Virus record (IMG/VR): IMGVR_UViG_3300050821_002957
Location: 1-15,191 of that record
DNA: 15,191 bases
Direction: 5' to 3' (one strand)
Source: a virus
Shown here: positions 1 to 15,191 of the stretch, piece after piece
Position numbering within the stretch: the stretch's first letter is position 1
Layout: every line of letters starts with the position of its first letter
The notes under the pieces: generated by a model
Told to the model about the DNA's origin: nothing
Database searches by the model: none
Seen by the model: only the letters and a program-made list of their open reading frames with translations
Made by a program: the position numbers and the translations under genes

Positions 1-2
1 GA

Positions 3-140
3 AAGGCAGAGCGTGCAGCCGCCGAAAAGAAGAGACGTGAAGAGAAGGCCGCAATCGAAAAGAAAGAAGACAACGACCTGAAGACTTACGAGAGACTGAA
101 GAAAAAGTATGAACATAACGAATCACAATCTGACGTTTAA
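3..140 (+). CDS. 3' end of an upstream gene (partial), Lys/Glu/Arg-rich coiled-coil-like tail
   Basis: Open frame from the window edge: KAERAAAEKKRREEKAAIEKKEDNDLKTYERLKKKYEHNESQSDV, stop TAA at 138-140. 5' end is outside the window. Confidence 0.35.
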   Translation, partial: KAERAAAEKKRREEKAAIEKKEDNDLKTYERLKKKYEHNESQSDV

Positions 141-402
141 TCTCACGGTCAAAGAAGTCGGCGTCTGGATGGCTGCACTTCGCATGGCGGCGAAACACCA
201 CACCATGTGCATTCCGTGGGACTCCAATCCGTTTCTCGAACAACACAAAGAATTAGTGCGGCTGACCGGCTACGGCACTGGTGACCATGAAGATTTGTAC
301 AACGCTCTCGCAAAGAAAGCCAAAGAACAAGGGATCAGTTCGATGCAGGAGTTAAAAAATGCCGGAAAGAAACTTGAAGAGCTATATCCAGAACATGCTT
401 AA
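109..402 (+). CDS. hypothetical protein (97 aa)
   Basis: ORF-track frame. Start overlaps the upstream partial ORF by 32 nt, so the true start may be an internal Met. No recognisable motif. Confidence 0.4.
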   Translation: MNITNHNLTFNLTVKEVGVWMAALRMAAKHHTMCIPWDSNPFLEQHKELVRLTGYGTGDHEDLYNALAKKAKEQGISSMQELKNAGKKLEELYPEHA

Positions 403-688
403 TGAGGCCAAAGCAGCGTTTCTGATGGGCCACGGCTGGAAAGAAGTGGCAGCGGACGGCGGCGGAACCTGCTGGACCCCGGCCATCTACTTCCTTCAGA
501 CACCCCTTTATTTCGCATTAGACGACGCCTACGCCCTCGAAACGGTCGGGGAGGGTATCCACGCCTACGCCGGTCAAATCGCCCTGGAGGAAGCGCTACG
601 GGCCGAAGACCTGCGAAAAATGGACGAAGCTGAGGCCAAATATTTCGCCGAAACTGGCAAGCGCCACGGAATCTATCCAAACTGGTGA
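395..688 (+). CDS. hypothetical protein (about 98 aa)
   Basis: The ORF-track frame begins at 359. I prefer ATG 395, which overlaps the upstream TAA (ATGCTTAA coupling) and gives MLNEAKAAF...YPNW. Confidence 0.45.
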   Translation: MLNEAKAAFLMGHGWKEVAADGGGTCWTPAIYFLQTPLYFALDDAYALETVGEGIHAYAGQIALEEALRAEDLRKMDEAEAKYFAETGKRHGIYPNW

Positions 689-724
689 AAACAAAGGTGA
701 TAAACTGTTAAGATAGATAGGTAC

Positions 725-952
725 ATGCCTATCATCAATGTACCCTCGCCATCGCCAATGTCCGACTACCAAAAGGTCCAATTTGCGACCGAAGTAGCCT
801 TCAATTCACTCCTGGACGAAGCCAAAAAGCTCGGCCTGCCTCTGGAGCCGGTCATGGGCCTGATGTACCTTCCTACTTCAAAGCTAACAAGTGACTTTCA
901 AACGGCTTGCAGAGCCATTTTGGATGCTCTAAAAACGCCTCAAGAAAATTAG
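725..952 (+). CDS. hypothetical protein (75 aa)
   Basis: ORF with AGGT a few nt upstream of the ATG. No motif recognised. Confidence 0.45.
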   Translation: MPIINVPSPSPMSDYQKVQFATEVAFNSLLDEAKKLGLPLEPVMGLMYLPTSKLTSDFQTACRAILDALKTPQEN

Positions 953-996
953 ATACATCTATTGACTTCCAATTTGGAATTTGATAGCATGTATTC
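948..996 (+). promoter_or_regulatory. conserved early-promoter cassette, copy 1
   Basis: Palindrome-like TAGATACATCTA, then -35 TTGACT (962-967), 17-nt spacer, -10 TAGCAT (985-990). ATG at 997 lies 6 nt after the -10, so the mRNA should be leaderless. Confidence 0.6.
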
Positions 997-1446
997 ATGA
1001 GCGAATACACTGAAGCGAAATTAGACGGATCGAAAGTCATCGCCCAATTTGTTCTTGGCGGCAACTCTACCTTCACTGTGGTCTCGAAGCGCACCGGCTC
1101 CAGGCTGACGTTCAAGGTTGGATTTTGGGAAGAACGTAACATGTACATCGTCAAAGTTCTGACCGGCCCGGACAATGAAAACGACTACAGAAAGCTCGGC
1201 AAGATCAAAAACGGCATCTTCTCTTTGACTGATGCGGCTCGGGAGAACGGCTTCACCGTCGAGACTCGTTCCTTCAGCGTATTCTCCTGGCTGCTCCGCA
1301 ATCTCCAGTCCGAAAAGATCGACGATCAAATTGAAATCTGGCACGCTGGTCGCTGTGGCCGTTGCGGACGTAAGCTGACGGTGCCTGAGAGCATCGAGAC
1401 TGGTCTAGGACCGGAATGCGCTGAGAAAGGTTTTGGTGGTTTCTAG
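997..1446 (+). CDS. phage protein with a C-terminal CxxCG...GxGPEC zinc-ribbon motif (DUF6011-like)
   Basis: 149-aa ORF ending ...GRCGRCGRKLTVPESIETGLGPECAEKGFGGF. I recognise the CxxC...S...GxGPxC tail as a common phage C-terminal motif. Directly downstream of promoter copy 1. Confidence 0.6.
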   Translation: MSEYTEAKLDGSKVIAQFVLGGNSTFTVVSKRTGSRLTFKVGFWEERNMYIVKVLTGPDNENDYRKLGKIKNGIFSLTDAARENGFTVETRSFSVFSWLLRNLQSEKIDDQIEIWHAGRCGRCGRKLTVPESIETGLGPECAEKGFGGF

Positions 1447-1493
1447 TAGATACATCTATTGACATTGATCCCGAAACGAGGTACACTTTAATC
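1444..1493 (+). promoter_or_regulatory. conserved early-promoter cassette, copy 2
   Basis: TAGATACATCTA (1447-1458), -35 TTGACA (1459-1464), 17-nt spacer, -10 TACACT (1482-1487), ATG at 1494. Confidence 0.6.
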
Positions 1494-1661
1494 ATGACAA
1501 ACGAAATGATTTGGCAAAACATGACCGACGAACAAAGAAGGGCCGTCCTCGATCAATTCACTATGACTTCCGACATTCCTTCCGACATCAAGTGGGATCA
1601 TCTGGACCACGGAACACGGTCGGCGATCATCTTCACTGGAACGGTCGAGGGAATGAAATGA
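1494..1661 (+). CDS. small hypothetical protein (55 aa, leaderless)
   Basis: ATG 1494 sits 6 nt after the -10. Translation MTNEMIWQNMTDEQRRAVLDQFTMTSDIPSDIKWDHLDHGTRSAIIFTGTVEGMK. Below the ORF-track length cutoff. Confidence 0.45.
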   Translation: MTNEMIWQNMTDEQRRAVLDQFTMTSDIPSDIKWDHLDHGTRSAIIFTGTVEGMK

Positions 1662-1747
1662 TCGTCCTCCTTGCCGTCCTCAAAATTCAGGCTATGTTTT
1701 ACGGTTTGCGTCTGTTATTCTATATCAAGGTGAACCCAAATGACTAA
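1658..1747 (+). CDS. mini hydrophobic peptide (29 aa)
   Basis: ATG overlaps the upstream TGA (ATGA). MIVLLAVLKIQAMFYGLRLLFYIKVNPND is a single predicted TM helix. Weak support. Confidence 0.25.
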   Translation: MIVLLAVLKIQAMFYGLRLLFYIKVNPND

Positions 1748-1979
1748 CCTTCTCATTTCGCTCGGGGCTGCTGTCATGTGGCTTCTTCGGGTCCAAGAGT
1801 TAAAGTCTGCATTGCCGGAAGAATGCACGATGCTTCCGTCTGAGGGCCGCAGCTTCATCAATCTCCAACATTATGACCCGGACACGATCACTCGAATGTC
1901 AAGTGAGAATTATGAAGCTACGCATACTGCGGCTACTCCTGAAGTGGTCGTACTATCTGAAAATCCAACGGCTGAGTAA
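1740..1979 (+). CDS. hypothetical protein (79 aa)
   Basis: ORF overlaps the previous stop and has an N-terminal hydrophobic segment. Confidence 0.4.
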   Translation: MTNLLISLGAAVMWLLRVQELKSALPEECTMLPSEGRSFINLQHYDPDTITRMSSENYEATHTAATPEVVVLSENPTAE

Positions 1980-2048
1980 TTGGCTCTGGCATCGTAAGAT
2001 GGACGAGTTTTATCGGACGGTTCACCATCAGTCCGACTACGGCTGGTA

Positions 2049-2077
2049 ATTCCAAAATCTCATGCTATGATATTGGC
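2049..2077 (+). promoter_or_regulatory. extended -10 promoter (TGCTATGAT) for the downstream membrane protein
   Basis: TGcTATGAT, then 6 nt, then ATG 2078. The -35 is weak. Same leaderless geometry as the cassette family. Confidence 0.35.
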
Positions 2078-2560
2078 ATGAACATTCTAAGAAACGTATT
2101 GTTAGCGATGCTTCTTGTTGTAGGGATCGGATATTTGATTTCGCTGTTGCCTCCTCCACATCCTCGACACCACAAAGTCAAAATAGAAAAACTGAAGAAT
2201 GGCCAGTATGCCTACAAGGACAAGAAAGGCAACTGGTGGTTTTACGCCAAAAAAGTTGCAAAGGCTGGGAGTCAAACCGATTTTGATTTCGACTTTAATT
2301 TCACCGGAGCCGAGTTTGGTAAGTCAGCGAGTGGATCGGTGCGTATGCCTTCGGGCGGTTCATGGGTTCGTGCGTCAAATCCTCCCAAGCCGGAAGAAAT
2401 CGAAGAAGAGATTGAAGTGTCTGTCGAAGAGAGCGTCACAGGCGAACCGGAAGGGGACACTGACGACGGCGCAGATGCCGATTCAAGCGATTCTGGCGGC
2501 GATGGCGGCGACGGCGGGGGAGATGGCGGTGGGGATGGTGGAGGCGACGGCGGCGAGTAA
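2078..2560 (+). CDS. membrane-anchored protein with an acidic Gly/Asp-repeat C-terminal tail
   Basis: N-terminal TM helix (LLAMLLVVGIGYLISLL), central Lys-rich region, then a D/E-rich stretch ending in SGGDGGDGGGDGGGDGGGDGGE. Confidence 0.55.
   Translation: MNILRNVLLAMLLVVGIGYLISLLPPPHPRHHKVKIEKLKNGQYAYKDKKGNWWFYAKKVAKAGSQTDFDFDFNFTGAEFGKSASGSVRMPSGGSWVRASNPPKPEEIEEEIEVSVEESVTGEPEGDTDDGADADSSDSGGDGGDGGGDGGGDGGGDGGE
2492..2557 (+). repeat. in-frame GGC/GAT tandem repeat encoding (G)nD
   Basis: GGCGATGGCGGCGACGGCGGGGGAGATGGCGGTGGGGATGGTGGAGGCGACGGCGGC, an imperfect 9-12 nt periodicity. The PPSPPP-encoding minus-strand ORF (2272-2631) is its mirror image. Confidence 0.6.
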
Positions 2561-2593
2561 TTGACGCTATCCATCCTTGTGGTAGGATAGGTC
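2561..2593 (+). promoter_or_regulatory. promoter of the cassette family without the palindrome
   Basis: -35 TTGACG (2561-2566), then TGgTAGGAT as an extended -10 (2580-2588), ATG at 2594 five nt later. Confidence 0.4.
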
Positions 2594-3112
2594 ATGTCCC
2601 CAAAGACTGACATGTTCGGAACGCCGGTCATCGATTCATTTCGTGACGACTATCGTTTCCTCAGCAATTTTTATGTTGCACCTGTCTCTCTTTGGGGAAT
2701 TAACTTTCCTTCGTCCGAACATGCCTATCAATGGGCCAAGACAGATGACGAGCTTGAAAAGAAGTTCGTACTCTTCAAGCAGCTTCCGCATGTCCAGGGA
2801 TATCGTGTTATCTCGACTTCTCCCGGCCAAGCGAAGCGTGTAGGTAAGACAGTAACAAAACGTGAAGACTGGGATTTGATTCGTCCTGGCATCATGTTGG
2901 AAATTTTGAGAGCCAAGTTTAGTCAGAATCCCGATCTCAAAGAATTACTCCTGGCGACCGGCGATGCAATTCTCATTGAAGGCAACACATGGCACGACAA
3001 CGACTGGGGCCACTGTACGTGTGAGAACTGCATTACCAAGAAAAAATCCAATATGCTTGGTGCTCTGCTTATGCAGGTTCGAGAAGAATTACAAAATGAA
3101 AGACAAGACTAA
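2594..3112 (+). CDS. NADAR / YbiA (DUF1768) family protein, candidate ADP-ribosyl-guanine glycohydrolase
   Basis: 172 aa. FLSNFY...SSEHAYQWAK...LRAKFSQNPDLKELLLATGDAILIEGN...WG...NMLGALLMQVREEL lines up motif-for-motif with E. coli YbiA (FSNFA...SEHYFQAQKF...LRAKFEQH..LRALLLAT...LVE...WG...NRLGYLLMELREQL). Confidence 0.8.
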   Translation: MSPKTDMFGTPVIDSFRDDYRFLSNFYVAPVSLWGINFPSSEHAYQWAKTDDELEKKFVLFKQLPHVQGYRVISTSPGQAKRVGKTVTKREDWDLIRPGIMLEILRAKFSQNPDLKELLLATGDAILIEGNTWHDNDWGHCTCENCITKKKSNMLGALLMQVREELQNERQD

Positions 3113-3398
3113 AAACGCAATCGAAAAAAAGCTAACCAAAGTAGAAGAGTTGGTTTCTGACATCAGAGTTTTGATGACAGAACAAGAAACCTTACCAATT
3201 TTGTTGACCGAATATGATACTTGGTTGGTTCCTCGGCGAGTCGAATTTTGTGAAAACTGCATGAACATCAAAGCACAAGTAGGATATGCCGAAGTTGACA
3301 TTGAGGACTACAAGAAGGATACAAACTGTATGCCGAATGTCACATGGTGTCGTACATGTGGAGAGACCGGCAGTATCGGTGTCCTTACTGAGTCCTAA
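3096..3398 (+). CDS. small Zn-ribbon protein (CxxC...CxxC), 100 aa
   Basis: The ORF-track frame 2964-3398 overlaps the NADAR gene. Internal ATG 3096 (MKDKTKNAIEKK...) has GAGAAG upstream and overlaps NADAR by only 17 nt. Cys pairs FCENC...CRTCGETG. Confidence 0.5.
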   Translation: MKDKTKNAIEKKLTKVEELVSDIRVLMTEQETLPILLTEYDTWLVPRRVEFCENCMNIKAQVGYAEVDIEDYKKDTNCMPNVTWCRTCGETGSIGVLTES

Positions 3399-3406
3399 AT
3401 AGCAAC

Positions 3407-3652
3407 ATGCTTCTCCAGCACCCTCGCATCTATCTGTTCAGTGCAGCGCTCACCGTGATCAATTTAATCACGTTCTGTATCTGTGTCTACAATGGAAACG
3501 CTACAGGGATTGCGTGGAACGGCGTCTTCCTCATTTTTAATCTCATCGCAACCATTGGCAACTTCCGTATTCGTCATCATCGTGCTATACTACGTGAAGA
3601 ACAGAAAATGGAACGGCGAAATCAACTCATACGTTTGACCATCGGCGAGTAG
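3407..3652 (+). CDS. small membrane protein with two predicted TM helices
   Basis: 81 aa with two hydrophobic helices and a basic C-terminus. No good RBS. Confidence 0.4.
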   Translation: MLLQHPRIYLFSAALTVINLITFCICVYNGNATGIAWNGVFLIFNLIATIGNFRIRHHRAILREEQKMERRNQLIRLTIGE

Positions 3653-3663
3653 TTTCTACTTGT

Positions 3664-3756
3664 GGTGGCGTGGTGTATGGTTGCACAGCCTGCCTTATAA
3701 GCAGGGTCGCACTAGATGAGTGCCCGGACTGAGTTCAATTCTCAGCGCCACTACCA
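3664..3756 (+). tRNA. type-II-like tRNA (long variable arm), anticodon UAU by loop position (formally Ile, AUA-decoding); atypical
   Basis: Acceptor GGTGGCG pairs with CGCCACT (G1-U72). D-arm GTGT/GCAC with GG in the loop. Anticodon stem CCTGC/GCAGG, loop CTTATAA. The 23-nt variable region holds hairpin GCACT-AGATG-AGTGC. T-arm CTGAG-TTCAATT-CTCAG, discriminator A, encoded CCA. There is one extra nt between the D and anticodon stems. Confidence 0.5.
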
Positions 3757-3763
3757 AAATTTT

Positions 3764-4327
3764 ATGACATCTCTTGAAAAAGCAGGACAAGCAAAGAACC
3801 TTCTCATTGGCATCGCAGAGAAACTGACGGTGCCTGCGCTGACAGATGCCTGCAAGGTCGTTCTGTACGATCCAACCTTCGTGACGCAATACGGCTCGTC
3901 TGGAAAGCACCACAGCTATCCTGGTGGCTTGGCGATGCATACTCTCGAAGTGACTCAGTTTGCCTTGAAGATGGCCGAGATGCTTCCGATGGCCGATACT
4001 GACGTGGTTGCGACGGCGGCAATTTTTCACGACTACACGAAGATCAAGGAATACGCACCAGCAGCACAATTTGGTGATGGTGGATCGGTACGCCATACCA
4101 ACTATCGAAAATTCATTCGTCACGTTGCCGGAAGTCACGCTGCATTCATGATCGCCATCGAAGGAAAACGAGTGCCGGAAGAAAAGGTGTTCCGCATCGA
4201 GCACGCAATCCTGGCACATCATGGTTCGATTGCAGCAGGAAGTCCGATAGATATGGCGCTCATTGAAGCCTACATCGTGCATTACGCAGATTCATTCAGT
4301 GCAAAATTTGGTCCATCGAAAGGATAA
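3764..4327 (+). CDS. HD-domain phosphohydrolase (YhaM-like HD motif set)
   Basis: Motifs GKHHSYPGGLAMHTLEV, AAIFHDYTK, HAILAHHG and ...D fit the H..HD...H...H...D metal ligands. The ORF-track start 3716 lies inside the tRNA variable arm, so I place the start at ATG 3764, 8 nt after the tRNA CCA. Confidence 0.65.
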   Translation: MTSLEKAGQAKNLLIGIAEKLTVPALTDACKVVLYDPTFVTQYGSSGKHHSYPGGLAMHTLEVTQFALKMAEMLPMADTDVVATAAIFHDYTKIKEYAPAAQFGDGGSVRHTNYRKFIRHVAGSHAAFMIAIEGKRVPEEKVFRIEHAILAHHGSIAAGSPIDMALIEAYIVHYADSFSAKFGPSKG

Positions 4328-4328
4328 A

Positions 4329-4808
4329 ATGTTACTCGACACAATCAACACTCACATTACCGAAGCAATGAAGGCAAAGGATGGTCCACGTCTGACGACA
4401 CTCCGTGCAATCAAGGTGAAGATTGACGCCTTCATGAAAGAACGCATCAATCGAGTCGAAGTGACCGAGGCTAACGAACAGAAGATCCTGGAGAACCTCG
4501 TCAAGCAGCGCCTTGACTCAATTGAACTGTTCGAGAAAGGCAAGCGTTTGGATTTGGTTGCAATTGAAAGAGCCGAACTTGCGCTCATCAAAAGCTACAT
4601 GCCAAAGGATGCGACCGGCGTAGAGATCGACGCTGCAATTGAACTAGCATTACCGGGACTGCTTTCGACGGGTCCCAAGGCAATTGGTATGGTCATGGCC
4701 GATGTCAAAAAGAGATTGGCTGGCAAACGAGTGGATGGAAAGATTCTCTCAGAAAAAATCAAGGCTCGTTTCGTTGTCGCTGAAGCGAACGGTGAGACAT
4801 TCCATTGA
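4329..4808 (+). CDS. yqeY: GatB/YqeY-domain protein
   Basis: The ORF-track start 4263 overlaps the HD gene. ATG 4329 has AAGGA upstream. LTTLRAIKVKIDAFMKE...EANEQKILENLVKQRLDSIELFEKGKRLDLVAIERAELALIKSYMP...TGPKAIGMVMADVKKRLAGKRVDGKILSEKIKARF matches the YqeY/GatB C-terminal pattern along its length. Confidence 0.75.
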   Translation: MLLDTINTHITEAMKAKDGPRLTTLRAIKVKIDAFMKERINRVEVTEANEQKILENLVKQRLDSIELFEKGKRLDLVAIERAELALIKSYMPKDATGVEIDAAIELALPGLLSTGPKAIGMVMADVKKRLAGKRVDGKILSEKIKARFVVAEANGETFH

Positions 4809-4996
4809 TCGACTGGAAAAGTCTTGGCCTGAAAAAACCTCAGAAAAGAGCCTCTAGCAATCGTGACTCTAATTCGAGACTTCAGGTCAAGTGCATCTGT
4901 GGTCACAAGCAGTTTGAACATGAGTGTCATCCAGACGAACATTGTTACAAATGTGAATGCCGACAATTCAAGAGGTCCCGTCGTCCAACTGGATAG
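4805..4996 (+). CDS. Cys/His-rich mini-protein (TTG start), doubtful
   Basis: 63-aa ORF with KCICGHKQFEHECHPDEHCYKCEC. It starts at TTG and its last 23 nt run into tRNA-Arg(CCG). Confidence 0.25.
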   Translation: MIDWKSLGLKKPQKRASSNRDSNSRLQVKCICGHKQFEHECHPDEHCYKCECRQFKRSRRPTG

Positions 4997-5049
4997 GACG
5001 CTACCCTCCGAAGGTTGAAATAGTGGTTCAAATCCACTCGGGACTACCA
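4974..5049 (+). tRNA. tRNA-Arg (anticodon CCG)
   Basis: Acceptor GGTCCCG/CGGGACT (G1-U72). D-arm GTCC-AACTGGATA-GGAC. Anticodon stem CTACC/GGTTG with one U-U mismatch, loop CTCCGAA. T-arm AGTGG-TTCAAAT-CCACT. Discriminator A plus CCA. Confidence 0.7.
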
Positions 5050-5062
5050 TCTAGATATTGAC

Positions 5063-5251
5063 ATGAATCTGAATGACAAACCAATTAGCGTCACTGGCTC
5101 TGCCAATCCTGTAATCACTCGTGAAGAATATTATAAACGTCGTGAAAAATCTTCTAGCTACATGCCCGGATTAAAGAAAGGCGATCTCCCAAAGCGTATC
5201 AGGACAGCGGAAGATGATATTGCCGACATGCTTTTTGATCTAACAGAATGA
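5063..5251 (+). CDS. hypothetical protein (62 aa)
   Basis: ORF beginning 14 nt after the tRNA. A degenerate cassette, TAGATATTGACATG, lies upstream. Confidence 0.35.
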   Translation: MNLNDKPISVTGSANPVITREEYYKRREKSSSYMPGLKKGDLPKRIRTAEDDIADMLFDLTE

Positions 5252-5586
5252 CCCAAAAAGAACGACAAGCCATATTTGACGTAGTAGGTCAGGAAGCCGA
5301 TTTCCAAAAAATCTCAGGTTCCAATTTTGAAGTCGCTCTCAAGGAATGGTTTGATGATACTGAGAAACCATTCCCGCCCTATATTACAGACATTATCGTC
5401 CAGGTAATTGTTCAGTTAGCCAAGAAACCGCAATTTGAACACTATAAACTCGACGGAGATGTAGCTTTAAGAGCATTTGAACGGGCACTAAAACGAAGAC
5501 CATTTCGTATGATGGAAAATCCCTTTCCGGCTTTGACGAGAGTCGTCTTCGACAGTTTCATACGGCAGATACAACTAAAAAGATAG
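5248..5586 (+). CDS. hypothetical protein (112 aa)
   Basis: ATGA overlap with the upstream ORF. No motif recognised. Confidence 0.5.
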   Translation: MTQKERQAIFDVVGQEADFQKISGSNFEVALKEWFDDTEKPFPPYITDIIVQVIVQLAKKPQFEHYKLDGDVALRAFERALKRRPFRMMENPFPALTRVVFDSFIRQIQLKR

Positions 5587-5636
5587 CTCTGCTATATACC
5601 TGTAGAAGTCGAATCTAATCTTCGACCTAGAGGAAT

Positions 5637-5999
5637 ATGAGCAAAGAAAAAGTACAAGACGACAAAATTTTGTTGCGTCTGCCGTCCACTCTGACATCGG
5701 CAGTTGATCAAGTTATTAGAGAGCAAATCCCAGAGTTAAACCGCTCGGAATTCATCCGCAGGGCAGTTCGTTTTACGCTGGATCATGTCGAAGAATTCAA
5801 GACCAGTGATGCGGCGACCGTTCACGAAAAAACAGAAGTCGAGAGTGTTGCAAAGATCAATGCTGTCCGTGACCTTCGTGACCAATTACTACAATACAAG
5901 GATCTGTTGCAGAAGGAACCACAGACTCCAAACACCATCAAACAACTTTCGTTTTTGATCTTTTTGATCGGCGAAATGATCTTTAAGATGAACGATTAA
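5637..5999 (+). CDS. ribbon-helix-helix (CopG/Arc/MetJ-like) DNA-binding protein
   Basis: GAGGA RBS 7 nt upstream. The N-terminal ILLRLPSTLTSAVDQVIREQIPELNRSEFIRRAVRFTLD is a beta-strand followed by two helices, the typical RHH layout. A hairpin GTCGAA-N7-TTCGAC sits just upstream. Confidence 0.6.
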   Translation: MSKEKVQDDKILLRLPSTLTSAVDQVIREQIPELNRSEFIRRAVRFTLDHVEEFKTSDAATVHEKTEVESVAKINAVRDLRDQLLQYKDLLQKEPQTPNTIKQLSFLIFLIGEMIFKMND

Positions 6000-6026
6000 T
6001 AAACCGACGCTTGTATACATATTTGC

Positions 6027-6662
6027 ATGGAACAAAAACCGTGCCAAGTGTATTACTGTTACAAAACAACCAACATCATAAATGGAAAGGTTTACATTGG
6101 GTTCGCCAGTGATCCCAAAACTCGCTGGCGAAATCATAGAAGAGACGCTGAAACAGGTCGAGGATTTGCCCTCGCCGCCGCAATCCGAAAGTATGGATGG
6201 GACGCATTTGAATTTGAAGTGCTCTGTTGTGGTAAAGACAAGCGTATGATGTTGGAACACGTCGAGCCTGCATTGATTGAACAATATCAAAGTCGCATTG
6301 AACAAAATGGCTACAATGTAACTCGGGGCGGCGAACACATCCCGGTAGGCAATCGAGGTGGCTCTAAAAAAGGTCGTATTGTTTCTGAAGAATCTCGATG
6401 TAAAATGAGTGCTGCTAAGAAAGGCAATGTTAATGGAGCAGGTAACAAAGGCCATAAACATTCCGATGAAACTAAACAAAAAATGGCAGCAGTCCATCTG
6501 GGTCATTTCGTTTCTGAAGAGACACGCAAGAAAATCGGTAATCGTTATCCTCGCACAGAAGAAGAAAAGCAACACCTAAGCAAAATAAATACGGGCCGAA
6601 AACATTCAGAAGAAACCAAACAGAAGATGGCAGCGACAAGACGAGCAATGAGGATTTTGTGA
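6027..6662 (+). CDS. GIY-YIG homing endonuclease with C-terminal NUMOD3-type repeats (Seg/I-TevI-like)
   Basis: VYYCYKTTNIINGKVYIGFASDPKTRWRNHR is the GIY-YIG motif with the Arg and His-Arg. It is followed by four copies of SEE(S/T)(R/K)xK(M/I)... spanning 6375-6660 (SEESRCKMSAAKKGN, SDETKQKMAAVHLGH, SEETRKKIGNRY, SEETKQKMAATRRA). Confidence 0.8.
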   Translation: MEQKPCQVYYCYKTTNIINGKVYIGFASDPKTRWRNHRRDAETGRGFALAAAIRKYGWDAFEFEVLCCGKDKRMMLEHVEPALIEQYQSRIEQNGYNVTRGGEHIPVGNRGGSKKGRIVSEESRCKMSAAKKGNVNGAGNKGHKHSDETKQKMAAVHLGHFVSEETRKKIGNRYPRTEEEKQHLSKINTGRKHSEETKQKMAATRRAMRIL

Positions 6663-6819
6663 CGTGTGGAAGTACATCAAGGCACTCTTTACCCATCGGC
6701 CAAAATTCTATCGAGGCACCACAGATAAATTTTGCCACAGCCTTACCGCAAAGGGCAGGCGCATTCGTATTTTCGGATTCGCCTGGGGACCTTTTATGAT
6801 TGCATTCCATACACTCGAC

Positions 6820-6847
6820 TTGACAAATAGCAGACCTTCTGTAAAAT
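6820..6847 (+). promoter_or_regulatory. sigma70-like promoter TTGACA-16-TAAAAT
   Basis: Near-consensus hexamers at 6820-6825 and 6842-6847, with an AAGGG SD and ATG 6863 downstream. Confidence 0.45.
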
Positions 6848-6862
6848 ACAAAGGGTACTCCA

Positions 6863-6973
6863 ATGAAGCTGACTGAAATGGAAAAGAAAATTTTGTTCGA
6901 TGCAATAACACTGTACAAAAACAGAGCAGAGACGATGTTGATACTACCATCTCGGCACTTCGTAGCAAATTGA
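6863..6973 (+). CDS. mini-ORF (36 aa), doubtful
   Basis: MKLTEMEKKILFDAITLYKNRAETMLILPSRHFVAN. Its only support is the strong promoter and SD just upstream. Confidence 0.25.
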   Translation: MKLTEMEKKILFDAITLYKNRAETMLILPSRHFVAN

Positions 6974-7047
6974 AACGTGCTCTGGCTGAAGGAACCAACA
7001 GCACCGGCCCAAGATGATCTATTTGGTTGGAATGCGAAAATAATACC

Positions 7048-12653: not shown

Positions 12654-13238
12654 ATGGAAACGTACAACGTAGCTGACCTGATGGAACAGATGAAATCTGG
12701 CCGTTATCAATATGGCATGGGCAATTCGACTACGAGCATCATCCGTTCGATCACCGAAACGGACGGCAAGTACTTAGTCGTTGGTGACACGTTTGCCTGC
12801 TCTGGTGACGAGAATCTTCAACTTTCGGTCACGCCGATCCTGGTACAATTGAAGCCGATGGTCGAAGATTACTTTTCCGGGGAATGCGCCGCTTTCGAGA
12901 CCCTGGCTGAGGCTCTAAAACACGCCAGTGTCAAACGGATCACTGGACGCATCCTGACGGCCACCGACGAATTCAAATTGAAAGCTGGAGTGGTCGAGAA
13001 AAAGAAGTTCTCGAAGAAACGCCTGGAAGCAGTCCTGGAGCAGAACGGATTCGGAAAGAGCGTAAGCTACGAGGCGTATGGACGTGACGTGCGTGCTTTC
13101 ATCGGAACTGACAAACGGACGCAACTGGAAGCGTTTCTGCGCCTTCTGGGGCAGTCTGTAGACGAGTCCTACGCTCCTGGTCGCAACGTCGTCGAGTGCA
13201 AAGTGACTTTCTTCAAGGCATGGCACTGGGATGAGTAG
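12654..13238 (+). CDS. hypothetical protein (194 aa)
   Basis: Leaderless ORF. No motif recognised. Confidence 0.55.
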   Translation: METYNVADLMEQMKSGRYQYGMGNSTTSIIRSITETDGKYLVVGDTFACSGDENLQLSVTPILVQLKPMVEDYFSGECAAFETLAEALKHASVKRITGRILTATDEFKLKAGVVEKKKFSKKRLEAVLEQNGFGKSVSYEAYGRDVRAFIGTDKRTQLEAFLRLLGQSVDESYAPGRNVVECKVTFFKAWHWDE

Positions 13239-13396
13239 ATCCGAACTGCGCCGGATGTCAATGGCGAAACTGATCGATCTCGCACAGGAAAATGAAATCT
13301 TCGTCTGGTTCGATGCCCACCGGGAAGGCATTTTGGAAGCGCTGGTGGACAAGCTGGTCGAAGAAAAAAGTGACGTTTGGTGTGCATATTTTTAGA
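13231..13396 (+). CDS. small hypothetical protein (54 aa)
   Basis: ATG 13231 overlaps the end of the previous gene by 8 nt. MSRSELRRMSMAKLIDLAQENEIFVWFDAHREGILEALVDKLVEEKSDVWCAYF. Its stop TAG is the first triplet of the next palindrome. Confidence 0.35.
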
Positions 13397-13439
13397 TGCA
13401 TCTATTGACTTTGGGGCCGATCTGCGGTAGACTTTAAGT
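13393..13439 (+). promoter_or_regulatory. conserved early-promoter cassette, copy 5 (perfect palindrome)
   Basis: TAGATGCATCTA (13393-13404), -35 TTGACT (13405-13410), 17-nt spacer, -10 TAGACT (13428-13433), ATG 13440. Confidence 0.6.
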
Positions 13440-13700
13440 ATGAAAGCGATCAACACTTGGAAGATGGCAAACGGACAGACCGCAGAATTGCTTGGCGTTT
13501 GGGAAGAGAAACAATCATGGGGCGCTACTTGGAAGATGAACCTAGAGCGCTACAAGAGTACCAAAACCGAACGCACTTTACGGTACTTGATTTGCCACGA
13601 AGGTGGTCAATCGTATCTGGTGGGTGAATACAAATCTCTCAAAGCTGCATTGAAAGACATGGCTTCGTTTTCCAACTACACAAAGAAAGTGACGGCATAA
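13440..13700 (+). CDS. hypothetical protein (86 aa)
   Basis: Leaderless ORF downstream of cassette 5. Confidence 0.5.
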   Translation: MKAINTWKMANGQTAELLGVWEEKQSWGATWKMNLERYKSTKTERTLRYLICHEGGQSYLVGEYKSLKAALKDMASFSNYTKKVTA

Positions 13701-13704
13701 TTCC

Positions 13705-14103
13705 ATGAGCAAAACATACCGCAACACTCTGTTAGATGCACCCAAGCCAGAAGCACTCACCGTCCAGGTTCTCTATACGACTTACGGTGGCGTCGTTTCT
13801 GACTGCACCAACGGTGGCGTGACGGCCAAGTCTGAACGGGTTATCCTGGTCCCCATCGGCGCAGATGTTCCGACCGATTCCAAGCTGCCGGTGCTCAAGG
13901 TGGTTTGTCGTTATTTTGGTGGTCTTTCATACCTGCACGCAGAGCCAGTGACACCCGTAGGCAAAAATCTGATCGGCTACATGGCTGGTGGCAATTTCGT
14001 CTACTCCTGTGACAGCCGTTTCCGTACCTGGGTTTCTCAGTATCCGATCAGCGTCCATGATCGTGTCGAGACGCAGGCACAGTACAATTCGCTTTCGGTC
14101 TAA
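13705..14103 (+). CDS. hypothetical protein (132 aa)
   Basis: ORF 4 nt after the previous stop. Confidence 0.5.
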   Translation: MSKTYRNTLLDAPKPEALTVQVLYTTYGGVVSDCTNGGVTAKSERVILVPIGADVPTDSKLPVLKVVCRYFGGLSYLHAEPVTPVGKNLIGYMAGGNFVYSCDSRFRTWVSQYPISVHDRVETQAQYNSLSV

Positions 14104-14107
14104 CCAT

Positions 14108-14245
14108 ATGTCAAAACGTTGGCCCAAAACCACTCGAAAGACTTTGATTCCCGAACTTAAAGCACTCTGGCCCATGTTCACCATTGCTGCATTTGCAGTT
14201 GTTGCTATCTTCTTCACAGCTTGGTATACGTCGGTACAAAAATGA
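14108..14245 (+). CDS. mini membrane protein (45 aa, one TM helix)
   Basis: MSKRWPKTTRKTLIPELKALWPMFTIAAFAVVAIFFTAWYTSVQK. ATGA coupling to the next gene. The ORF-track entry 13988-14245 is this frame extended upstream into the previous gene. Confidence 0.35.
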   Translation: MSKRWPKTTRKTLIPELKALWPMFTIAAFAVVAIFFTAWYTSVQK

Positions 14246-14835
14246 AAACTTTCACACCAGAAACCACCAAGATCCTTACCACCGAATTGAACGTGGCATT
14301 GGAATTCGTCAACGGAATTTTTCCCTTGATTCCTCTCGCCCGGATCGTCGAACTGATCAATGCGTACAATCTCGACGCAAGTCAGATTGTTCATCAACTC
14401 GGACCAGACAATGGGCGTATGGTCGTGCCGGTCGCCGCCGACATCTTCTTTGTCATGTCCTGGTATCGCTTTGAGACTGGTACATTTGAAATTGTCTGCT
14501 ACGCCACCAGCAACTTCGATGATTACGAGAAACCTTTCACCGCAGTCTACAAGGCACAAGAAAGAGCCGCTCGTCTGCGTCGTCTGAATTCTACGCTTCG
14601 TAATCTTCCTCCTTATTTCAACGGCAAGGGTCATGCTTTTGCTTGTGTCGAGAACCATATCATCAGCGCCGGGTTTGATCATCGAGAGTTTCAAGACGAT
14701 ACGACTAGCGGCAAATTTAGTTGTATGGGTGAGCAAGGCCGGATCATGTCGGACATCAGCAACAATGCTTTTATTGTCGTAACATGGTACAAGATGCCGT
14801 CAGGAAATTACGAGATCATTGCATATGCCAGCTAA
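14242..14835 (+). CDS. hypothetical protein with an internal duplication
   Basis: The ORF-track start is 14221. ATG 14242 overlaps the upstream TGA. The two halves share DIFFVMSWYRFETGTFEIVCYATS and NAFIVVTWYKMPSGNYEIIAYAS. Confidence 0.55.
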   Translation: MKTFTPETTKILTTELNVALEFVNGIFPLIPLARIVELINAYNLDASQIVHQLGPDNGRMVVPVAADIFFVMSWYRFETGTFEIVCYATSNFDDYEKPFTAVYKAQERAARLRRLNSTLRNLPPYFNGKGHAFACVENHIISAGFDHREFQDDTTSGKFSCMGEQGRIMSDISNNAFIVVTWYKMPSGNYEIIAYAS

Positions 14836-15191
14836 AACAGCACACCAAATCAAATTGATCAAAAAGATCACTCACCTAAAGACTGCAATCGAAGCTGGTG
14901 ACACCACTTTGCAGCTAGAATTGAAGAAGCTAGAAAACGATCTGAAAAGTTCTCTTGGATCGGTCGGACAAAAAAAGAAACAACAAAAACCAAAGCCGGT
15001 CCAGGTCAATCACGCCTGCCGAGATGCAGTGACCGGAGAATGGAAGCTGTGTGAAGTCTGCCAAGGCCGAGTCCACAAACACGGCTGTAAGACAATCAAG
15101 AAAGAGTGGGATTGCTGCAAAAAGCGTCATACCAAGATGGGTCTGGAGTGGGTGGGAAAGTCAGACGCCGACTACTACGAACGCAAGACGA
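14825..15191 (+). CDS. Cys/His-rich protein, 5' partial (runs off the window end)
   Basis: ATG 14825 overlaps the end of the previous gene. MPAKTAHQIKLIKK...HACRDAVTGEWKLCEVCQGRVHKHGCKTIKKEWDCCKKRH... stays open to the end of the window. Confidence 0.45.
   Translation, partial: MPAKTAHQIKLIKKITHLKTAIEAGDTTLQLELKKLENDLKSSLGSVGQKKKQQKPKPVQVNHACRDAVTGEWKLCEVCQGRVHKHGCKTIKKEWDCCKKRHTKMGLEWVGKSDADYYERKT

Follow-up and report, generated by a model that had tools for sequence, protein, structure and literature searches.

What does a transfer RNA (tRNA) with a long variable arm and the anticodon UAU do in a phage genome? We investigated this question in a stretch of viral DNA of 15,191 nucleotides (nt), positions 1 to 15,191 of IMG/VR record IMGVR_UViG_3300050821_002957 (the whole stretch is hereafter called the window), in which ARAGORN calls a tRNA-Ile(tat) of 93 nt at exactly 3664..3756 on the + strand, just upstream of a gene for an HD-domain protein. 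It is the first of nine tRNAs that ARAGORN calls in the window (Arg ×4, Lys ×2, Ile ×2 and Val). Judged by comparison with its homologues, this tRNA(UAU) is a genuine, conserved long-variable-arm tRNA, and the searches place it in a large, previously uncharacterised family of five-arm tRNA(UAU) found in phages of many hosts and in the tRNA arrays of Bryobacterales, a design that is common to hundreds of phages. We consider it probable that the tRNA is a functional elongator that decodes the rare Ile codon AUA, with Ile the most likely amino acid charged.

Structure and covariation of the five-arm tRNA

The minimum-free-energy fold of the window tRNA(UAU) is a five-arm cloverleaf of -35.3 kcal/mol with all stems intact (parts in Table 1). 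The tRNA core is present throughout, with U8, A14, G18 G19, a TTCRANY-type T loop, U33, a purine at 37 and the 3' CCA all found in the window copy and invariant, or nearly so, in alignment A1. U8 and G9 follow the acceptor 5' strand, and two nucleotides, A3687 and G3688, separate the D arm from the anticodon stem, where one is usual. The variable region comprises 23 nt (3706-3728) and carries a hairpin of 4-5 base pairs (bp), which gives the tRNA the look of class II, where the variable region exceeds 10 nt and forms a stem-loop. The GAU that is conserved in the loop of this hairpin stands at 3715-3717.

The 7/5 five-arm cloverleaf was tested on 20 distinct homologues. We found that 93.1% of the cells are paired, that 13 of the 26 pairs show changes on both sides, and that all five helices are supported; none of 500 shuffles reaches the observed values, and slid controls are 26-53% paired. 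U33-U34-A35-U36-A37 of the anticodon loop are invariant in alignment A1, with A38 and A73 in at least 90% of rows, and the D-stem pair U13.G22 is also invariant, the D arm having a 4-bp stem and a loop of 5-6 nt across the family. In two sequences, AU replaces CG at 49-65, the first pair of the T stem, and these two also break 8-65, the eighth acceptor pair that an 8/4 fold would need. Since 49-65 covaries where 8-65 breaks, the configuration is 7/5, and the 8/4 'allo-tRNA' cloverleaf is ruled out. A candidate sixth anticodon-stem pair consists of G opposite G, U or A.

A sequence-only reading of the window had described a long-variable-arm tRNA with UAU at 3664-3756, including an extra nucleotide between the D and anticodon stems, and this structural description proved accurate, ARAGORN giving the same span, the A and G being present and covariation supporting the arms. 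It had also seen a Tyr-like acceptor, a likeness that carries no meaning because acceptor stems differ widely across the family. The large phage and acidobacterial family and the conserved GAU in the arm loop, which is the most interesting feature, go beyond that reading.

Distribution of the tRNA(UAU) family

Relatives were reached through a search with the HD protein, a look-up of contigs and then a degenerate D-arm pattern. The 203-amino-acid (aa) open reading frame (ORF) that starts at 3716 is also listed for two contigs, one from ENA (404 kb) and one from Logan (23 kb), and the 404-kb contig shows that the window belongs to a jumbo phage; its source is a giant soil phage. Two further loci, L003 (a 370-kb contig, HD 80% identical) and L004 (a short contig, HD 60%), carry a 93-94-nt tRNA(tat) directly upstream of HD, and in L021 a homologous tRNA is likewise upstream of HD. 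Among 50,697 GenBank phages, nucleotide BLAST gave no match to a 2-4-kb portion of the window or to the tRNA by itself, while a search of IMG/VR with the HD protein returned no match, nor did the exact anticodon-arm pattern.

The degenerate pattern combined the 5' acceptor, D arm and T loop, and left the anticodon and the variable arm unconstrained. It matched 67 metagenome contigs (mostly JGI samples), 10 GTDB genomes and one IMG/VR contig, and UAU occupies the anticodon loop in all 82 of the 82 matches of the anticodon-free pattern. The 10 GTDB genomes are, without exception, metagenome-assembled genomes of Bryobacterales, Bryobacteraceae or Solibacteraceae (Acidobacteriota). The bacterial and metagenome copies lie in tRNA arrays of up to 36 genes with a fixed order (...Arg(tct)-Gln(ttg)-tRNA(UAU)-Lys(ctt)-Lys(ttt)-Glu...). 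These arrays are otherwise ordinary, near-complete tRNA sets, most of them with one CAU tRNA, and the tRNA(UAU) is their sole UAU tRNA. In the variable arm and anticodon stem, the window copy is closest to the Solibacteraceae version L078, a hint that the host of the jumbo phage is probably acidobacterial.

Furthermore, a covariance model, R1, was built from the 20-homologue alignment and run on loci fetched with a loose viral pattern. It recovered 52 further full-length members in IMG/VR viral contigs, with unrelated acceptor and D stems (acceptors such as CCCGCCG..., GCCAGCG... and ACTGGGT...), and the family is present in >100 IMG/VR viral contigs. Members in cultured GenBank phages (Table 1) were found by BLAST of two R1 members; this gene type is already in public records under the plain label tRNA-Ile. 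Among the papers open to searching, literature searches returned no description of the long-arm tRNA-Ile(UAU) architecture in phages or bacteria. No neighbouring gene is conserved across the hosts of the family.

Several array copies are altered. The 3' strand of the acceptor is shortened in L012, L037, L053 and L059, and L038, L060 and L073, which ARAGORN misses, have a GC insertion in that strand and A38 changed to G; these copies may be decaying genes or assembly errors.

A conserved GAU loop in the extra arm

Across the family, the extra arm consists of a covarying 4-5-bp stem and a loop of seven nt with the consensus C-A-G-A-U-N-A. Among 111 seven-nt loops, G3 is found in 104, A4 in 103, U5 in 104 and A7 in 110, and a few loops read exactly CUGAUAA. 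In the major tRNA-Ile(GAU), the anticodon loop has G34, A35, U36 and A38 at the places that match positions 3-5 and 7 of the arm loop. Nureki et al. are said to have named the same nucleotides in 1994 as identity nucleotides of the E. coli isoleucyl-tRNA synthetase (IleRS). A review lists all four as IleRS identity elements in E. coli (PMC9976931).

Because two of the collecting patterns required the arm motif or UUAUAA, two control scans were run. The first used the pattern CAGATTAG..GGTTCGAYTC with the anticodon free and gave 119 matches, of which 104 are tRNA(tat) by ARAGORN and none has another anticodon; the other 15 are uncalled by ARAGORN, and several of them are truncated or variant members. 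The second joined CTTATAA, a long gap and the T loop with the arm free, and among its first 80 matches listed, GAU is found in the arm of 44 of 47 cloverleaf-positive long-arm tRNA(UAU), or of 34 of 37 when distinct arm sequences are counted. Other extra-arm phage tRNAs (Asn, Met, Glu and Lys) have no copy of their own anticodon in the arm, so the association of UAU with a GAU arm is specific, and a general rule by which extra-arm phage tRNAs copy their own anticodon is ruled out. Additionally, no covariation was observed between arm-loop position 6, mostly U, and position 37 of the co-resident tRNA-Ile(GAU), mostly A.

The window has a tRNA-Ile(GAU) of its own (7478-7551, + strand), which begins with U1 and has the loop CUGAUUA, with U at 37, a position that is almost always a purine in tRNAs. 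When this loop is set beside the arm consensus CAGAUUA, the second position alone differs. As for the extra hairpin in general, it also occurs in the variable arm of other phage tRNAs of 86-91 nt, namely Asn(GTT), Met(CAT), Glu(TTC) and Lys(TTT) (L128 2268-2354, L334 2259-2346, L157 6799-6885, L354 426-512, L153 614-701 and others), so among phages a class II-like build does not seem uncommon for tRNAs other than Leu, Ser and Tyr.

AUA usage in carrier genomes

Next, we aligned codons across 231 carrier loci with 2,208 non-overlapping ORFs, using all-against-all BLASTP and pairs of 30-85% identity. The residue opposite each codon was tallied, and partners with AUA or with the same codon as the query were ignored. 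Opposite AUA (2,243 positions) stand Ile in 34%, Val in 19% and Leu in 15% of cases, an Ile/Leu ratio of 2.3. The corresponding values are 26%, 25% and 19.5% for AUU (4,714 positions; ratio 1.34) and 41%, 20.5% and 15% for AUC (2,627 positions; ratio 2.73), whereas Leu codons (925-3,122 positions each) give Ile 8-11%, Val 6-8% and Leu 48-58%, with ratios of 0.14-0.21. The tested Tyr and Ser codons align overwhelmingly with Tyr and Ser. Since the Ile/Leu ratio of AUA lies between those of AUU and AUC, AUA is used as an Ile codon in carriers, and the alignment argues against delivery of Leu, Tyr or Ser at AUA.

The share of AUA among all codons is 0.90% in the window, where it makes up 16.7% of the Ile codons, and 1.77% in carriers, compared with 0.3-0.4% in the DNA flanking the Bryobacterales arrays; the AUA demand of the phage is thus roughly two-fold above that of the flanking bacterial DNA. 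AUA enrichment in the phage was one of the checks named by the sequence-only reading, and these shares show it.

Proposed mechanism

An ordinary bacterial IleRS would read G34 or lysidine-34, and a UAU tRNA would be charged poorly. The E. coli IleRS charges tRNA-Ile(UAU) inefficiently, and Mycoplasma mobile needs a changed IleRS residue and an AUG-avoiding ribosome for its tRNA-Ile(UAU) (PMC3575796). In the tRNA studied here, the extra arm could make up for this by providing an Ile identity signal, or some other Ile-specific contact with a protein, whatever the host, and decoding would fall to the UAU loop. Charging by an unadapted host IleRS would spare the phage the need for the TilS/lysidine pathway of the host. 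As no neighbouring gene is conserved across hosts, the arm should have as its partner something that all hosts possess. Which of the two hairpins stacks under the D arm may even change from charging to decoding.

A more specific proposal, which we advance tentatively and would not call likely, is that of a 'two-headed' tRNA, in which the arm would be a transplanted anticodon loop of tRNA-Ile(GAU) that serves IleRS as a handle, the triplet read by the synthetase being separate from the triplet read by the ribosome. Such a tRNA would be a portable AUA decoder, independent of TilS and of the type of the host IleRS. Fukunaga and Yokoyama reportedly found in 2005 that the archaeal leucyl-tRNA synthetase (LeuRS) uses its C-terminal domain to recognise the end of the long variable arm in tRNA-Leu; this enzyme, of class Ia like IleRS, is a precedent for a synthetase that reads a variable-arm tip.

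Several observations weigh against the view that the window tRNA is a functional, Ile-charged decoder of AUA. The shuffle z-score of the single-sequence fold of the window copy is weak (-1.68), and the Rfam tRNA model (RF00005) misses this copy both at the gathering score and at E<=10, although it finds the other eight window tRNAs; the L003 copy also goes unreported by this model at the gathering score. Covariance models, whose rejection of the fold would have counted as a refutation for the sequence-only reading, gave a divided answer, the window copy being missed and the homologues L010 and L078 passing the Rfam tRNA threshold with 38.4 and 40.5 bits against 29. Thermodynamics and Rfam by themselves leave the call in the window doubtful, so the decision was taken from the comparison with other sequences. 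The determinants of E. coli-type minor tRNA-Ile, C4-G69, U12-A23 and C29-G41, are not present, the window having G4-C69, G12-C23 and U29-A41; these determinants are known for E. coli only. As a copy of an anticodon loop, the arm loop is incomplete, with A and not U at position 2 and mostly U and not a purine at position 6. Some of the patterns used to collect the family require UUAUAA or AGAUNA, which inflates the conservation counts in the part of the sample gathered with them; the unbiased figures are those of the 82-match anticodon-free set, of the arm-motif scan with a free anticodon and of the scan with a free arm loop. The codon alignment reports how AUA is used and not which tRNA reads it. 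In the canonical binding mode of class Ia synthetases, the variable region faces away from the enzyme, and an arm of 4-5 bp may fall short of the anticodon-binding domain, so that a handle may need an unusual geometry or the alternative stacking of the hairpins. Additionally, unmodified U34 is expected to misread AUG (PMC3575796), and acidobacterial allo-tRNA(UAU) that had been turned into amber suppressors were inactive in E. coli (PMC5389517); some of these inactive suppressors may be related to the tRNA(UAU) family.

Alternative explanations

A fold that arose by chance, or a pseudogene decaying in an intergenic spacer, would agree with the weak z-score and the missing Rfam match of the window copy, as well as with the damage in some array copies (truncated acceptor in L012, insertion in L038). 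However, every stem of the window copy is intact, and compensatory changes persist while HD diverges to 60% identity and recur in unrelated phage groups, a covariation by which this explanation is effectively refuted. A tRNA-like RNA that takes no part in translation is unlikely; it might serve as a decoy or sponge (its target being an Ile-specific enzyme, a toxin or an anticodon nuclease of the host), as a processing signal for the HD messenger RNA (mRNA), or as a regulatory RNA. Such a role would suit the failure of the Rfam tRNA model, the packing of the gene between two ORFs with spacers of 7-11 nt and neither promoter nor terminator between, and a neighbourhood rich in tRNA and translation genes (HD/YhaM-like nuclease, YqeY, NADAR, PNK-like kinase, RF1 fragment), and a decoy would profit from two anticodon-like loops on one RNA; yet A73, CCA, U33, A37, A38, the T loop and G18 G19 are all retained, the gene fills the AUA slot of near-complete tRNA sets that hold one CAU tRNA, and the carrier phages are AUA-rich. 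The context of the family differs completely between phage groups, so a role in cis on HD fails to explain it.

The two hairpins could also have their parts reversed, the GAU hairpin being the true anticodon arm of a tRNA-Ile(GAU) that reads AUC/AUU and the UUAUAA hairpin an insertion between the D and anticodon arms. The five nt from the GAU hairpin to the T stem in 104 of 143 members, a class I variable-loop length, a D stem set off from the UAU hairpin by one nucleotide more than usual, and the exact loop CUGAUAA of a few members would all fit, but we regard this as very unlikely, because 99 of 111 loops have A where U33 is near-universal, most have a pyrimidine at position 37, and most stems have only 4 bp, whereas the UAU loop is fully canonical (Y32, U33, A37, A38) and many carriers, the window included, already have a normal tRNA-Ile(GAU). 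It is improbable, too, that LeuRS or another synthetase that recognises class II tRNAs mis-acylates the tRNA, with AUA then read as Leu, Tyr or Ser, a proposal that has been made for the nematode nev-tRNA-Ile(UAU). A long variable arm with A73 is shared with tRNA-Leu and tRNA-Tyr, LeuRS ignores the anticodon, a change from Ile to Leu is mild, E. coli IleRS handles UAU poorly, and class II UAU tRNAs of nematodes are leucylated in vitro (PMC3333845, PMC4300185). Against this, AUA positions in carriers align as Ile does (Ile/Leu 2.3) and not like Leu codons or those for Tyr or Ser, recognition by LeuRS would leave the invariance of A37, A38 and the arm GAU unexplained, and the G73 favoured by the seryl-tRNA synthetase is not present. 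Among the options raised by the sequence-only reading, a decoder of the rare codon AUA fits best. A suppressor-like oddity is made unlikely by UAU being an invariant sense anticodon that pairs with AUA and by the ordinary standard-code ORFs that fill the window, and a retargeted Tyr/Leu-type scaffold by the 4-bp D arm with its 5-6-nt loop, unlike those of the array Leu, Ser and Tyr tRNAs, and by the alignment of AUA as Ile.

Relation to known tRNAs

The minor tRNA-Ile(UAU) of TilS-less bacteria resembles the tRNA(UAU) family in using UAU for AUA in place of the CAU/lysidine solution, in having A73, A37 and A38, and in facing the same two problems, recognition of U34 by IleRS and avoidance of AUG. 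Those tRNAs are class I with a 4-5-nt variable loop, whereas the family of the window has a 15-nt hairpin arm with a GAU loop. They also need a co-adapted IleRS (Arg865 in M. mobile) and ribosome, whereas the family of the window lies on mobile genomes that meet many hosts. The tRNA-Ile2 that is the CAU substrate of TilS and receives lysidine differs in having C34, where the window anticodon is TAT. With the class II tRNAs (Leu, Ser, Tyr and Sec) the family shares a long variable-arm stem-loop between the anticodon and T arms and a length of ~90 nt, but a UAU anticodon belongs to none of them. Bacterial class II tRNAs have a 3-bp D stem and a large D loop; the tRNA(UAU) D arm, 4 bp with a 5-6-nt loop, is unlike that of the Leu, Ser and Tyr tRNAs of the same arrays, and its arm further differs in its sequence-conserved loop and in the five unpaired nt on its 3' side. 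Derivation from tRNA-Tyr or tRNA-Leu is ruled out, as the similarity to array Tyr, Leu and Ser tRNAs is only generic and the acceptor varies freely.

The allo-tRNA(UAU) of Acidobacteria (Mukai et al. 2017), for which UAU is the commonest anticodon of the group in soil metagenomes, have a long variable arm and an acidobacterial origin as well, and 'five-stem-junction' shapes are mentioned for them (PMC5389517). The hallmark of allo-tRNAs is, however, a 12-bp acceptor branch arranged as 8/4 or 9/3, in contrast to 7/5 in the tRNA(UAU) family. Their D stem is long, as in tRNA-Sec, and closes on a tetraloop, and their anticodon stem is lengthened, in contrast to a D stem of 4 bp in the family. The allo-tRNA(UAU) carry stem-destabilising mutations, lie beside toxin-antitoxin or transposon genes and are treated as having potential Ser identity, whereas the family has A73, intact stems and a context of phage tRNA clusters and tRNA arrays (HD, YqeY and tRNAs in the window). 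By their description, the tRNA(UAU) family is set apart from these allo-tRNA(UAU), although the two may overlap in part. The nematode nev-tRNA-Ile(UAU) (PMC3333845, PMC4300185) combines class II architecture with UAU and raises the same question of the amino acid at AUA. It is eukaryotic, nematode-specific, derived from tRNA-Leu and leucylated in vitro, whereas tRNA(UAU) is of phages and bacteria, has no Leu-like features, and its codons point to Ile. Finally, the nine window tRNAs and carriers that are AUA-richer than their putative host recall phage tRNA clusters and bacterial tRNA arrays in general; the usual expectation for such clusters is ordinary copies matching host types, whereas the architecture of tRNA(UAU) is without counterpart in standard bacterial sets.

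The start of HD and the gene neighbourhood

Nine HD homologues (178-196 aa) begin, in the alignment, where the 203-aa ORF has Met-17, encoded by the ATG at 3764, and their N-terminus MT.LE.A.QAK is conserved. The ATG at 3716 lies in the variable arm, as the sequence-only reading had seen, and more exactly in its loop; there the AU of the conserved GAU and the following G form a start codon that opens a 203-codon ORF, which misled the ORF caller. On this alignment, the HD gene starts at 3764 and its overlap with the tRNA is an ORF-calling artefact; the claim that the tRNA sits on the start of HD does not hold, as the tRNA ends 7 nt upstream. The expected disagreement between annotation pipelines did occur, since the gene caller extends HD to 3716, Rfam misses the tRNA and ARAGORN finds it.

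Window, L003 and L004 share the upstream ORF, whose stop codon precedes the tRNA by 8-11 nt, and the AT-rich spacer from CCA to the HD ATG measures 5-7 nt in the window (7 nt), L003, L004 and L021, where no Shine-Dalgarno-like sequence precedes the ATG. A promoter and terminator scan of the + strand gave nothing above shuffled expectation and no site between the 81-aa ORF, the tRNA and HD. The tRNA is probably cut from a polycistronic transcript of these three, and its excision would strip the HD message of nearly all of its 5' leader.

The NADAR, YqeY, GIY-YIG and PNK-like genes of the window are interleaved with its nine tRNA genes, a combination that resembles an island for translation or tRNA repair, and possibly for counter-defence. 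The release factor 1 (RF1) fragment covers the last part of the PCRF domain along with the RF-1/GGQ domain, with weaker matches to PrfH and ArfB. The same truncated form, 167 aa, occurs in the related 370-kb phage L003 (14878-15381), with no N-terminal half seen nearby; the fragment may be a stand-alone peptidyl-tRNA hydrolase or rescue factor. L003 also has two Rfam tRNAs, at 13386-13469 and 13747-13821 (40.6 and 39.6 bits), that ARAGORN does not call, and the viral contig L005 has a transfer-messenger RNA (tmRNA) at 7692-8004 (tag ANNNFAFAMAA), ~4 kb from its tRNA(UAU).

Table 1. Coordinates of the tRNA(UAU) and its parts, of neighbouring genes in the window, and of family members in GenBank phages.
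Feature	Genome	Coordinates	Strand	Evidence or remark
Whole tRNA(UAU) gene, five arms and encoded CCA	Window	3664..3756	+	ARAGORN; homologues L003, L004, L005, L021 and others; covariation
Acceptor 5' strand GGTGGCG, pairing with 3746-3752 CGCCACT, G1.U72	Window	3664..3670	+	7/7 pairs 100% paired in 20 homologues; pair 2-71 CG to GC
D arm, 4-bp stem GTGT/GCAC and 6-nt loop ATGGTT (A14, G18, G19)	Window	3673..3686	+	Pair 10-25 covaries GC to AU
Anticodon arm CCTGC-CTTATAA-GCAGG, TAT at 3696-3698; U33, A37, A38	Window	3689..3705	+	Compensatory changes in 5/5 stem pairs
Variable-arm hairpin GCAC-UAGAUGA-GUGC, or 5-bp stem GCACT/AGTGC with loop AGAUG	Window	3709..3723	+	3/5 stem pairs covary
Five unpaired nt CCGGA, from variable-arm hairpin to T stem	Window	3724..3728	+	5-nt linker in 104/143 family members
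T arm CTGAG-TTCAATT-CTCAG, 5-bp stem (7/5 configuration)	Window	3729..3745	+	Pair 49-65 covaries CG to AU; 8/4 alternative breaks in same sequences
Discriminator A73 and encoded CCA	Window	3753..3756	+	Sequence; alignment A1
Upstream 81-aa ORF, stop codon 11 nt before tRNA	Window	3407..3652	+	Conserved ORF-tRNA-HD arrangement
Spurious 16-codon 5' extension of HD ORF (MSARTEFNSQRHYQNF), tRNA read as protein	Window	3716..3763	+	Missing from 9/9 aligned homologues
HD-domain protein, YhaM-like HD/HDIG phosphohydrolase, 187 aa	Window	3764..4327	+	Pfam HD 3e-10; NCBIfam YhaM, HDIG
NADAR protein	Window	2594-3112		
YqeY protein	Window	4329-4808		
GIY-YIG/NUMOD3 homing endonuclease	Window	6027-6662		
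Release factor 1 C-terminal half, 170 aa	Window	8644-9156	+	Profile positions 163-330 of 347
PNK-like P-loop kinase	Window	9984-10478		
tRNA(UAU) member, 93 nt	Sinorhizobium jumbo phage Phosso (PV764938)	383344-383436		Annotated tRNA-Ile(tat)
tRNA(UAU) member, 92 nt	Stenotrophomonas phage DLP6 (KU682439)	104738-104829		Annotated tRNA-Ile-TAT
tRNA(UAU) member, 98 nt	Vibrio phage vB_ValC_WD615			Annotated tRNA-Ile; adjoins 72-nt tRNA-Ile(GAU)
tRNA(UAU) member	Synechococcus phage S-SRM01	match 32944-33020		Unannotated
tRNA(UAU) member	Synechococcus phage S-SKS1	match 178527-178591		Unannotated

Other tRNA genes of the Bryobacterales arrays

Upon examining the arrays, we observed a 'tRNA-Cys(ACA)' that has A73 and not the Cys discriminator U73 (L080 5124-5200, and in the same slot of most arrays, among them L007, L010 and L032); an A34 anticodon is very unusual in bacteria. 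Several array tRNA-Leu with CAA, CAG and GAG have 77-78 nt and no long variable arm, a normal feature of bacterial tRNA-Leu (L080 3297-3373 and 6715-6791; L073 4844-5092), whereas tRNA-Leu(TAG) keeps the long arm, at 84 nt. Furthermore, copies of tRNA-Pro(TGG) carry inserts of 14-19 nt in or near the anticodon loop and are read by ARAGORN as His, Gln, Arg or 'Stop' tRNAs of 90-96 nt (L017 109-200, L041 672-763, L042 1150-1245, L027 839-929 and L079 184-273). The array 'tRNAs' of ~92 nt called His, Gln, Arg or Pro are such tRNA-Pro with anticodon-loop insertions and not members of the tRNA(UAU) family; the inserts may mark disrupted genes or be intron-like.

Significance

Some copies are missed by covariance models and an ORF is extended into the tRNA, so tRNA counts, AUA-decoding capacity and the HD N-terminus are mis-annotated in public data. 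In bacteria, AUA normally needs a CAU tRNA that is rewritten by TilS. A plain UAU anticodon makes a poor IleRS substrate and can misread AUG, and a phage that switches hosts can rely on neither fix. The tRNA(UAU) family would be a third, widespread solution for AUA, shared by phages that infect Proteobacteria or Cyanobacteria, by a jumbo phage with a probably acidobacterial host and by chromosomal tRNA arrays of soil Acidobacteriota. We know of no other natural anticodon-type determinant outside the anticodon arm, and if the GAU of the extra arm is an identity element, it would be the first; it would also offer a ready-made design principle for orthogonal tRNAs and make anticodon-independent isoleucylation directly testable.

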